64,000 nucleotides of DNA, from the NCBI RefSeq assembly GCF_002854065.1, contig NZ_CP024147.1. The stretch is one strand, 5' to 3'. Below are positions 61,648-63,280 of the stretch, piece after piece. Position 1 is the stretch's first letter, and every line of letters begins with the position of its first letter. The DNA is from Escherichia coli (GTDB taxonomy: Bacteria > Pseudomonadota > Gammaproteobacteria > Enterobacterales > Enterobacteriaceae). The position numbers and the translations under genes were made by a program. The notes below the pieces were generated by a model. It had not been told where the DNA came from and searched no databases. It saw only the letters and a program-made list of their open reading frames with translations.

Positions 61648-61683
61648 TGTAGAAAAACCATACCTACACCTTTGCAAATCTGG

Positions 61684-61715
61684 AAAACTGGCCGTAACAA
61701 GCCAGTTTTTTCTTT
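61684..61715 (+). terminator. gor intrinsic terminator
   Basis: aaaactggccgtaacaagccagtttt hairpin followed by ttctttat. Confidence 0.6.
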
Positions 61716-61919
61716 ATAAGAATGATAGTTGACACTCTTGTTTATGTGTATTCTATATAAAATATTGATACCATAATTAAACAGATGAGAATAAAAAAGC
61801 ATCAATTACTTGTTTATATAGAGAACCAATTCTTAGATTTTTCGCATGATTTGAAATAGAAATTGATGATGTATTCGCGTCATTGAATTCCATTTTAAAA
61901 TCTGTTTCTCTAGGTTTAT

Positions 61920-63164
61920 TTAAATATTTTTTTGTATGGTGTCCGGAGATAAGGATAAACTCTCATGCCTAGATAATGGGCGTTCATCTTCTTGTGTATA
62001 TATAACTTTATAATCTTTTGGTAAGTCTTCAGCCAGGCGACCGGAGAATAAAGTTAGTTCGTCAGTAGCCATCGTAAATAACCAAGCTTCCTGATTTATA
62101 CTCTGGTTAACTCGTAAAATTCTACCCAGTACCTGCCTGAAATAGAGCTCAGTTTTAACAGCGCTTAGATGACAGCAAACCTGAAGTCGAGGGATGTCTG
62201 TACCCTCACTGATCATGCCAACACTGACAATCCACTCGGTAGTCGCATGTCGATAATGGTCAATTTTAGAAATGGCTCTTCTATCGTGATATGTCACAAT
62301 AGTTGTAGTTTGGCCAAACTCGTTTTCTAAAATACTTAGTAGTTCATATGCATGCTCGACTGATGAAGCAACAACCAGACCACCTGCGTCAGGGTTAAAT
62401 TTTCTAATTTCACGAAGTTTTTCACATCCAGATTTGATTACATACCTCATTGCATCAGGATACCAAATTATTGATTGATATGAAGTTACTGTCTCATTCA
62501 AAAAGTCTGCTATAGAACTATAATTTTTCATTGTTTCATCGGATGAGATAGCCAAATTGCTACTATTTACAAGGACAATTTTTGGCTTACGACAAACGTT
62601 ATCTGCAATAGCTTCTCTGAGACCGTATTCATAGTCACAGCTAACCACTCCATCCGAATCAGTGTAATTTGAAAACACTATTGGTGTATTGTCTGTTCGC
62701 CATGGAGTTCCTGTTAATGCCAATGTGTAACTGACACATTGTTGAACTTGAGACAGTATTTCCCCGCCCCAGACATTTGCATTTTCCAATGAATCACCAG
62801 AGCAATGATGTATTTCGTCGAAAACAGCCAACACACGATGACGCTTCAAAGAATCCCAGAAACGTTTATCGAAATACATCAGACTATGATAAGTATACAC
62901 CGCGCCAACCGCACCAAAGTCTCCATCAAAACTTCTTTCCAGAATACGGGAAAAATTACTTTTTATAGATGAGACTACCGCTGTTGAGGGGGCAAAGCAT
63001 ATAACCAGATCAACCATATCGAGCTCAAGCATTCTTTTGGTGACTTCGGCCGCCATTACAGTTTTTCCAGCACCAGGACTTGCAAGACATAGAAAGTGCT
63101 GTAATCCAGATTGATACTTTGTTAGCGCAGCGGCAACGCATTCTTTCTGCCAATCTCTCAACAT
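61920..63164 (-). CDS. Stand-alone superfamily-2 (DExH) helicase, ResIII-like N-domain + Helicase-C
   Basis: 414 aa; Q-motif-like LRDWQKE, Walker A SPGAGKT, motif II DEIHH, motif III TGTP, motif V SEGTDIP, motif VI QVLGRILR; AT-rich; not part of the K-12 gor neighbourhood as I recall it. Confidence 0.75.
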   Translation of the reverse strand: MLRDWQKECVAAALTKYQSGLQHFLCLASPGAGKTVMAAEVTKRMLELDMVDLVICFAPSTAVVSSIKSNFSRILERSFDGDFGAVGAVYTYHSLMYFDKRFWDSLKRHRVLAVFDEIHHCSGDSLENANVWGGEILSQVQQCVSYTLALTGTPWRTDNTPIVFSNYTDSDGVVSCDYEYGLREAIADNVCRKPKIVLVNSSNLAISSDETMKNYSSIADFLNETVTSYQSIIWYPDAMRYVIKSGCEKLREIRKFNPDAGGLVVASSVEHAYELLSILENEFGQTTTIVTYHDRRAISKIDHYRHATTEWIVSVGMISEGTDIPRLQVCCHLSAVKTELYFRQVLGRILRVNQSINQEAWLFTMATDELTLFSGRLAEDLPKDYKVIYTQEDERPLSRHESLSLSPDTIQKNI

Positions 63165-63280
63165 ACTCGATGCTCATCACTATGTTGACTAGACTGGCCC
63201 CCTGAATCTCCAGACAACCAATATCACTTAAATAAGTGATAGTCTTAATACTAGTTTTTAGACTAGTCATTGGAGAACAG

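Follow-up and report, generated by a model that had tools for sequence, protein, structure and literature searches.

A decaying SF2 helicase gene behind gor in Escherichia coli points to a three-gene Xre–VspR–helicase cassette of mobile elements

Introduction

The stretch of Escherichia coli DNA considered here (64,000 nt of contig NZ_CP024147.1, NCBI RefSeq assembly GCF_002854065.1; termed the window) has near its right end an open reading frame for a superfamily 2 (SF2) DNA helicase, which is located between gor and a copy of the insertion sequence IS2. The question raised by this locus is whether the helicase gene is a solitary gene, as it appears to be in the window, or the remainder of a larger system, and if so, what such a system may do for the DNA that carries it. 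The initial annotation, made from the nucleotide sequence, described a stand-alone gene that may have belonged to a multi-gene defence or mobile-element module. It is well supported that the gene is the third member of a cassette, consisting of a divergent helix-turn-helix (HTH) regulator of the Xre type, a VspR-like protein and the helicase.

The Xre–VspR–helicase cassette

In strain 100416, which has no IS2 at this site, a 189-aa VspR-family gene overlaps the start of the helicase gene by 7 nt and is followed by a divergent HTH gene of 103 aa. The helicase is thus not a stand-alone gene, as had been annotated, since both partners adjoin it in the IS2-free allele.

A pattern scan with one genome per species (~100,000 species-representative genomes) yielded 387 loci, of which the best 80 were analysed together with the loci collected earlier. 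The same order, i.e. a divergent HTH gene, a VspR-like gene and then the helicase, is found in Citrobacter, Klebsiella, two Vibrio plasmids and Pseudomonas aeruginosa. Synteny was counted in the 81 loci with at least 1.1 kb of upstream DNA (Vibrio, Shewanella, Pseudomonas and Enterobacteriaceae). The VspR-like gene is directly upstream of the helicase and on the same strand in 77 of these, a divergent HTH gene is likewise present in 77, and 74 loci have both partners. Homologs therefore do not occur only as solitary genes. The commonest junction between the VspR-like gene and the helicase is a 7-nt overlap.

The triad is carried by GInt-like islands, Tn7-like CRISPR-associated transposons (CASTs) and megaplasmids. 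A gin-like operon lies within 10 kb of it in 22 loci, and tnsA, tnsB, tnsC or tniQ in 15. In all 15 of the latter the triad stands directly after tnsC, and tniQ, where it is included in the fetched DNA, is mostly downstream of the triad. In several of the GInt-like loci the triad comes directly after ginD. Neither of the two mobility systems is found within 10 kb in 49 of 86 loci, plasmids among them. Of the module proposed initially, the mobile-element part is upheld by these locations; the defence part is not, as the link to defence genes (see below) is one of neighbourhood.

The helicase is ~46%–48% identical across subfamilies, and the HTH and VspR-like proteins drop together to ~22%. In Pseudomonas, Halomonas and Klebsiella, too, the helicase gene is preceded by a distant member of the VspR family. 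A phage origin of the helicase was considered and rejected, since its phage relatives are distant helicases with at most 31% identity.

Two copies of the triad, located on different elements, were seen in several genomes of Vibrio, Photobacterium, Shewanella and Psychromonas (loci L027/L040, L026/L043, L033/L055, L030/L065 and L082/L083).

Interruption of the cassette by IS2

The features of the locus in the window are shown in Table 1. The insertion belongs to IS2 by its left inverted repeat (IRL) and orfA, both present in the window, and by the target-site duplication (TSD) TTGAC, one copy of which is at positions 63185-63189. At the same site in strain CUWW06, PGAP annotates an "IS3-like element IS2 family transposase" with a programmed frameshift.

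Table 1. Coordinates of features at the helicase locus, numbered from the first nucleotide of the window.
Feature	Position	Strand	Basis or remark
gor (glutathione reductase)	60292..61647	plus	open reading frame list, backbone comparison and empty-site comparison
attL core CGTTACCATG	61629..61638	plus	left island boundary; junction alignment
3′ part of the ancestral gene for the 462-aa helicase, no longer in frame	61777..61919	minus	alignment with CUWW06 and 100416
Premature helicase stop	61920-61922	minus	follows from the missing base in the A8 run
Homopolymer tract	61927-61933	minus (coding)	T7 on the plus strand, i.e. A7 in the coding strand; 8 in relatives
SF2 (ResIII/Helicase_C) DNA helicase/translocase open reading frame	61920..63164	minus	414 aa, ATG start; truncated allele
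Remnant of the VspR-family partner gene (last 8 codons and stop, 32 nt)	63158..63189	minus	comparison with the IS2-free allele L002, and with L001
Left part of IS2 (IRL, orfA, start of orfB)	63190..64000	plus	sequence; transcribed away from the helicase

The left end of IS2 is, as first noted, just upstream of the start codon, with a 25-bp gap between the helicase ATG and position 63190. This gap contains the end of the partner gene, whose TGA overlaps the helicase ATG. IS2 thereby parts the helicase from its partner gene, its promoter and the Xre regulator, all of which are past the end of the window. The suggestion that the native promoter or upstream partner genes had probably been displaced is supported by the 100416 allele with its overlapping partner and divergent Xre gene, and comparison with that strain also places the VspR-like and Xre genes beyond the IS2 copy and outside the window, as had been predicted. 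A promoter scan found no promoter-like site reading into the helicase. Because IS2 severs the promoter, the coupling of translation and the partner's final 8 codons, and because a deletion removes the C-terminal motif of the helicase (see below), the cassette in the window is probably inactive.

In Salmonella enterica (L100 and L101, positions 8748-10000) codon 185 of the VspR-like gene is interrupted by an IS3 element (TSD ATG). This site is ~10 bp from that of the independent IS2 insertion in E. coli (63185-63190), and the orientation is the same, the transposase gene pointing away from the helicase. The paired insertions may mark a hotspot of the IS3 family, or else selection that acted convergently to uncouple the helicase.

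The C-terminal frameshift

The helicase encoded in the two closest genomes, CUWW06 and 100416, has a chain length of 462 aa, and homologs from Citrobacter to Vibrio are consistently ~455–470 aa. A 1-bp deletion in the A8 run shifts the frame in the window, so that the protein ends early and the last 50 residues are lost. In the A8 allele the remainder, now out of frame, encodes a variable linker and a conserved terminal motif (...LRIGSLYKQVIDAFLFSSV). This is the tail design of the whole family: a variable linker of ~55–60 residues rich in S, E, K and N, which is disordered in the AlphaFold2 (AF2) model, precedes the terminal motif L+ΦG-Φ+QRVIxAFΦ, where F457 is invariant.

A sequencing error as the cause of the frameshift was rejected, as the identical 414-aa protein is found in independent assemblies. 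The 414-aa allele is taken to be real since an exact match recurs on at least 14 E. coli contigs. In Salmonella the 414-aa form is dominant (78 contigs versus 3).

All combinations of insertion and tract length were seen in the loci compared (L001, L002 and L096-L101): IS2 with A7 in the window, IS2 with A8 in CUWW06, no insertion sequence with A8 in 100416, and no insertion sequence with A7 in three E. coli and one Salmonella. As the tract is polymorphic in every combination with the insertion, its length has changed more than once. The A7/A8 variation possibly represents a behaviour resembling phase variation, a tolerated decay, or an allele rescued by transcriptional slippage.

The helicase

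The initial reading of a minus-strand 414-aa open reading frame with a complete SF2 motif set is confirmed by the translation, which has GAGKT at aa positions 31–35, DEIH at 116–119, TGTP at 151–154, SEGTDIP at 319–325 and QVLGRILR at 344–351. In an alignment of 31 family sequences all five motifs are on invariant columns. Walker A, DExH and motifs III, V and VI, together with a two-RecA fold in the AF2 model, place the protein in SF2, and the catalytic core (aa 1–380) of the window copy is intact. An in-frame TGA is present 4 codons before the ATG, as first described. Also confirmed is the AT-rich composition: the G+C fraction is 0.33–0.44 across the helicase region versus 0.52–0.56 in gor and prlC.

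Pfam detects ResIII (3.4e-11) and a weak Helicase_C (1.5e-3). No fused nuclease or methylase domain was found by Pfam, in agreement with the earlier statement that there is none and no other fused domain. In the AF2 model of the 462-aa form the core has a pLDDT of ~80–95. The best structural match in Foldseek is RadD (1.5e-17), followed at ~1e-13 by XPB-II, the motor of EcoR124I HsdR and SauUSI; the sequence E-value against XPB-II is ~5e-6.

Several His and Cys residues are invariant in the family. These are in DEIHHC, flanking motif II (119–121), at C191, and in QVCCH after motif V (330–332). To judge from their sequence positions they could form a metal-binding site bridging both RecA domains.

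None of the named helicase families accommodates the protein. The RadD model (NCBIfam NF053632) gives 53.6 bits against a cutoff of 720 (E-value = 1.2e-14), and identity to RadD is ~20% structurally. The XPB model (NF045503) gives 11 bits against 610, and instead of a Bax1-type nuclease the neighbours are VspR-like and Xre genes. HsdR, Type III Res and Type IV helicase-nuclease models show only weak hits over part of their length (REase_III 0.04, mREase_IV 6e-5, EcoAI-R 21.8 bits against 550). Searches of the helicase and all neighbours with PADLOC, NCBIfam and PHROGs gave no full-length match for the helicase or its partner; the best PADLOC match of the helicase is PbeA (1.5e-9, profile positions 366–619 of 672). 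The cassette helicase shares the two-RecA-domain core and the motif set with the motors of RadD (E. coli YejH), XPB-II, HsdR and SauUSI. It differs from these proteins in that identity is ~20%, the equivalog cutoffs are missed by a wide margin, a nuclease domain is lacking and a RadD C-terminal domain is not evident, and also in having a disordered linker with a terminal motif, in being encoded by mobile elements and in its obligate VspR partner.

The VspR-family partner and the Xre regulator

The partner protein (189 aa, within the ~170–195 aa expected for the family) has the domains VspR_N (PF27213) and VspR_C (PF27192) by precomputed Pfam assignments, and is 31% identical (E-value = 4e-26) to a Vibrio protein annotated as VspR. 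Its AF2 model (pLDDT 90.9) displays a winged helix and a long C-terminal helical hairpin, a PadR/MarR-like fold. There is no PADLOC match at all for this protein. In V. cholerae VSP-1, VspR represses the CBASS operon located directly downstream. The E. coli cassette resembles the VSP-1 genes vc0176 (HTH) and vspR (VC0177) in that a VspR-family gene is first in an island operon and a second regulator adjoins it. VSP-1 differs in having the CBASS genes capV-dncV-cap2-cap3 downstream and in lacking the helicase; the likeness is drawn via the Pfam family and the Vibrio protein annotated as VspR.

The divergent HTH protein matches the PADLOC profile Control_protein with 4.9e-26 over 92 of 101 positions, and its size class and two palindromic boxes are those of the controller (C) proteins of restriction-modification (R-M) systems and of the Xre regulators of I-F3 CASTs. 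It also matches PADLOC capH (6e-9) and has a weak similarity to antitoxins of the HipB/MqsA type. The E. coli protein and the Xre of a Vibrio CAST share 68% identity. The 98–102-bp control region contains two palindromes, ACTTAGATTGTCTAAGT and ACTTAGCAATYCTAAGT (ACTTAG-N5-CTAAGT type), which are common to E. coli and Vibrio, and the second of these overlaps a TATACT -10 element. The operators are thus conserved. Like C.Csp231I and C.AhdI, the cassette Xre has a full-length Control_protein match and two palindromic boxes in a shared promoter region. It is not, however, an R-M controller co-transcribed with a restriction endonuclease, since it is divergent from the vspR-helicase operon and the E. 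coli island has no restriction endonuclease; the genes it would repress encode a VspR-like protein and a nuclease-less helicase.

In a second subfamily the HTH protein has 68 aa and the palindrome is ACGGATTATAATCCGT. The different palindromes of the two size classes (68 versus ~100 aa) suggest specificity groups that do not cross-react, comparable to phage immunity regions. Both classes agree with those published for I-F3 CASTs, where Petassi et al. found a 68-aa C.AhdI-like and a ~100-aa C.Csp231I-like Xre between tnsABC and tniQ-cas in nearly all elements. In their work electrophoretic mobility shift assays (EMSA) demonstrated operator binding, and reporters showed autoactivation at low dose and repression at high dose. 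The CAST Xre represses the divergent promoter and controls the att-targeting crRNA or tniQ-cas, and zygotic induction was proposed for it (Petassi et al.). The regulatory logic of the cassette Xre is well supported.

A comparable arrangement is found in VPaI-7 of V. parahaemolyticus (strain RIMD2210633). There the divergent promoter of VPA1392 is under repression by VpxR (VPA1391) and is silenced by H-NS, ToxR and LeuO as well, and VPA1393 is annotated as an SF2 helicase (COG SSL2). By annotation, VPA1391-1393 have the same layout as the cassette: a divergent Xre, a small gene for a hypothetical protein that Prokka names vspR, and an SF2 helicase. The two Xre size classes and the operators of the C.Csp231I type are those published for CASTs, and in Vibrio CASTs the triad is located between tnsABC and tniQ-cas. 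The E. coli copy differs from the CAST cassette in being on a GInt-like island, i.e. one with a tyrosine recombinase, and in having no CRISPR array for the Xre to act on. The literature on VPaI-7 and CASTs treats the Xre alone and leaves open whether VPA1392 belongs to the CAST. No description of the triad was found in the papers searched on VspR with helicases, on GInt islands and on CASTs.

The island at gor

The initial annotation took the locus to stand in place of the dinQ/agrAB/arsRBC region. It is in fact an insertion between gor and dinQ, and dinQ follows the island in relatives. Homology to the backbone of 5,416 other E. coli genomes ends at window position ~61638, within the last gor codons, which are rewritten by the insertion (the product ends in VTMRG rather than VTMR). 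The attachment sites were obtained by junction alignment with the island-free strain HS-01 and with the distal junctions of CUWW06 and 100416: attL forms imperfect direct repeats with attR CGTGACCATG, which is outside the window just before dinQ, and with the attB of the empty site, CGTGACAATG. DNA of the helicase locus is present in two of 5,426 complete E. coli genomes. The helicase is therefore not a conserved core gene with an invariant neighbourhood but part of an att-flanked island.

The inserted DNA, an arsenic-resistance island, is ~26 kb in CUWW06, IS2 included. It carries the helicase cassette, an 869-aa SMC/LmuB-like ATPase and two ars clusters, and at its far (dinQ) end an operon for an integrase, two large proteins and a ~150-aa protein; the helicase is its terminal gene, the last before attL. 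The operon at the far end is homologous to operons adjoining the triad in Pseudomonas and Vibrio. This gin-like four-gene operon is homologous across loci, and the E. coli copy is transcribed outward. The product of its first gene resembles an integrase (PHROG integrase 6e-17), and searches of Pfam, NCBIfam and PHROGs gave no match for the two large proteins.

As in the GInt islands described in PMC5385486, there are imperfect direct repeats (10–11 nt in GInt islands, 10 nt here) at a specific site, here the 3′ end of gor, and the C-terminus of the target gene is altered by the integration. Further likenesses are a short AT-rich terminus and a resistance cargo, and the four-gene operon is a partial one. 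Unlike GInt islands, the gor island has its recombinase operon at the dinQ end and facing outward, not inward from the 5′ end. It is termed GInt-like because of the outward operon and because the two large proteins have no detectable integrase domain. A model with tandem elements is unsupported, since no convincing third att copy was found upstream of the recombinase operon.

By the insertion into the last gor codons (61629-61647; L009 4430-4445) the native terminator hairpin of gor has been displaced to the far (dinQ) side of the island. Just inside the island end, at positions 61684-61711, there is a hairpin with a T-run (AAAACTGGC-CGTAACAA-GCCAGTTTTTT) that is missed by a consensus terminator scan. 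From its sequence, it could serve as a gor terminator.

The 869-aa SMC/Rad50-like ABC ATPase adjoins the HTH gene in enterobacterial islands (L001 24219-26828, L003 3143-5758, L099 6027-8636). It matches the full PADLOC LmuB profile (3e-26) and has additional N- and C-terminal regions; one record annotates it as "TrlF family", and it is split or truncated in several strains. No LmuA-type effector was found near it. The ATPase was considered as a fourth cassette component and rejected; it is placed outside the cassette core because it is confined to the enterobacterial lineage. Between the ATPase and the island ars operon, close to the host gor, is a 230-aa open reading frame (L001 26962-27654) whose match to eukaryotic-type glutathione synthase (TIGR01986, 1.3e-29) is confined to the C-terminal half of the profile (positions 264–471 of 473).

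In one Salmonella genome (L101 11518-14722) the helicase side of the segment is flanked by the conjugation genes TraU and TrbC instead of gor. The helicase/VspR/Xre/ATPase/ars segment thus occurs in a conjugative element as well.

Genes downstream of the cassette

In 19 of 86 loci, clustering of the flanking open reading frames shows a type I R-M system behind the helicase. In 12 it is immediately adjacent, starting within 79–215 nt on the same strand, and nine of the 15 Tn7-like loci have such an adjacent system. The genes encode an HsdR of the EcoAI family (1191 bits), HsdM (410 bits; in some loci with a fused FRG domain) and HsdS, and at least three different R-M architectures are found in this position. 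Other neighbours of the cassette are SIR2, Gabija-like genes, AbiEi_4, and RelA_SpoT with DUF4231. The variety of R-M architectures, and the CBASS operon behind vspR in VSP-1, suggest that the site behind the cassette is a slot for exchangeable payloads.

In L020 (11466-13568) such an HsdM, encoded directly behind the helicase, carries the FRG domain at its C-terminus and matches the PADLOC candidate PDC-S15 (2.3e-75).

A role of the helicase as a "nuclease-less HsdR decoy" for the adjacent R-M system is unsupported, as nothing in the neighbouring HsdR proteins corresponds to the conserved tail motif. The similarity between the helicase core and the adjacent HsdR in Vibrio loci is generic (19% identity, E-value = 2e-5).

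Possible function of the cassette

The interpretation preferred here, with a probability of roughly 0.55, is that the gene encodes a nuclease-free SF2 translocase of an Xre/VspR mobile cassette that serves its element in conflict or establishment, and that is inactive in the window. The vspR-helicase operon would fire in the absence of Xre, as the element enters a naive cell or upon derepression. A dimeric VspR-family protein, made in a fixed ratio with the helicase, would then direct or gate the ATP-driven translocase on DNA, and the output may be a function in immunity or in counter-immunity by which the element is established or prevails in conflict. Often the cassette would act beside a defence payload just behind it, a type I R-M system or, behind vspR in VSP-1, CBASS. 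The C-terminal motif lost in the window copy may be a docking motif.

Several points weigh against this interpretation. Two of the four divergent VspR-family members sampled, and vspR of VSP-1, have no helicase, so VspR may be a regulator alone. The helicase has no full-length match among the defence helicases of PADLOC-DB 2.0 (HamB, GajB, DrmA, ZorD, DruE, SngC, PbeA and others), and Pfam found no nuclease or other effector domain in it. In the E. coli island nothing is downstream of the helicase, which as the last gene leaves the payload idea without application there. The helicase appears to be dispensable for transposition of CASTs in a heterologous host, for which TnsABC and TniQ-Cascade alone have been reported to be sufficient. 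The published work on the cassette covers the Xre and leaves the helicase and its VspR-like companion aside, and the correspondence of the E. coli cassette to VPA1391-1393 is drawn from synteny, published annotation and a 68%-identical relative and not from direct sequence comparison.

The cassette is shared by GInt islands, megaplasmids and, without the helicase, VSP-1. A more specific suggestion, which is tentative and to which we give well below even odds, is that the VspR-guided helicase represents a new kind of entry-induced function of mobile elements. An entry-induced helicase could be a counter-defence or establishment factor that shields incoming unmodified DNA, or a nuclease-free defence. 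Since CASTs lack Cas3, it could also act in the native host on Cascade/TniQ R-loops or on target sites.

The triad may instead be a regulatory cassette for the cargo, in which the helicase acts as sensor or antirepressor: on a signal such as foreign or damaged DNA it would remove Xre or VspR from their operators at the expense of ATP, and so turn the payload on. CapH/CapP, which are two-gene regulators, provide an analogy, and the HTH does match capH. The three or more R-M architectures immediately downstream on the same strand are in accordance with this proposal, as are the repression of the directly downstream CBASS operon by VspR and the diversification of the DNA-binding pair beside a conserved helicase. 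But 67 of 86 loci have no R-M system within 9 kb downstream, the E. coli helicase is the last gene before attL, and VspR works in VSP-1 without a helicase. This explanation is regarded as possible but rather improbable.

The location of the triad directly after tnsC in 15 of 15 Tn7-like loci, and after ginD in several GInt-like ones, could indicate a mobility accessory that takes part in integration, excision, transposition or site repair for GInt recombinases and Tn7-like transposases. Recombination intermediates are substrates of RadD-like helicases. The CAST Xre moreover also controls the att-targeting crRNA or tniQ-cas. Such a role is unlikely: one and the same cassette accompanies two mechanistically unrelated mobility systems and has neither within 10 kb in 49 of 86 loci, CAST transposition has been reconstituted without the helicase, and islands persist with the helicase disrupted.

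An addiction module of the toxin-antitoxin type, in which a toxic helicase is held in check by Xre, by the VspR-like protein or by both, would account for the tight repression by Xre, the weak similarity of the HTH to HipB/MqsA-type antitoxins, and the repeated independent knock-outs of helicase expression (IS2 in E. coli, IS3 in Salmonella, the A7 frameshift). Any gene that is costly or of no use would, however, be disrupted just as readily, PADLOC shows no resemblance to known helicase toxins, and the size and three-gene layout are atypical, which makes the module a very improbable one.

That the gene stands alone and encodes a functional DNA-repair helicase of the host, i.e. a paralogue of RadD located by chance beside IS2, is refuted by its distribution and context despite intact catalytic motifs and RadD as the best structural and NCBIfam similarity, since it scores 53.6 bits against 720, is AT-rich, occurs in two of 5,426 genomes inside att-flanked DNA, is obligately paired with VspR and Xre genes elsewhere, and is promoterless and frameshifted in the window.

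Significance

The sequences of the cassette are already in databases under generic names, its parts are of known kinds, and two papers call VPA1392/1393 uncharacterised. In V. parahaemolyticus, one machine-learning study has VPA1391 and VPA1393 as top markers of clinical versus seafood isolates, and a second such study ranks a gene annotated as vspR first. The copy in the window is a decaying gene, yet it is a pointer to a widespread three-gene cassette that is found beside the genes for mobility in integrative elements of two unrelated classes, including the clinically relevant VPaI-7 and the CASTs that are engineered for genome editing. Knowledge of the role of the VspR–helicase pair would clarify how such elements establish themselves in new hosts, and how defence payloads such as CBASS and type I R-M systems are gated by VspR-type repressors. 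It would also tell whether the native behaviour of CASTs needs a helicase that is missing from the engineered systems.

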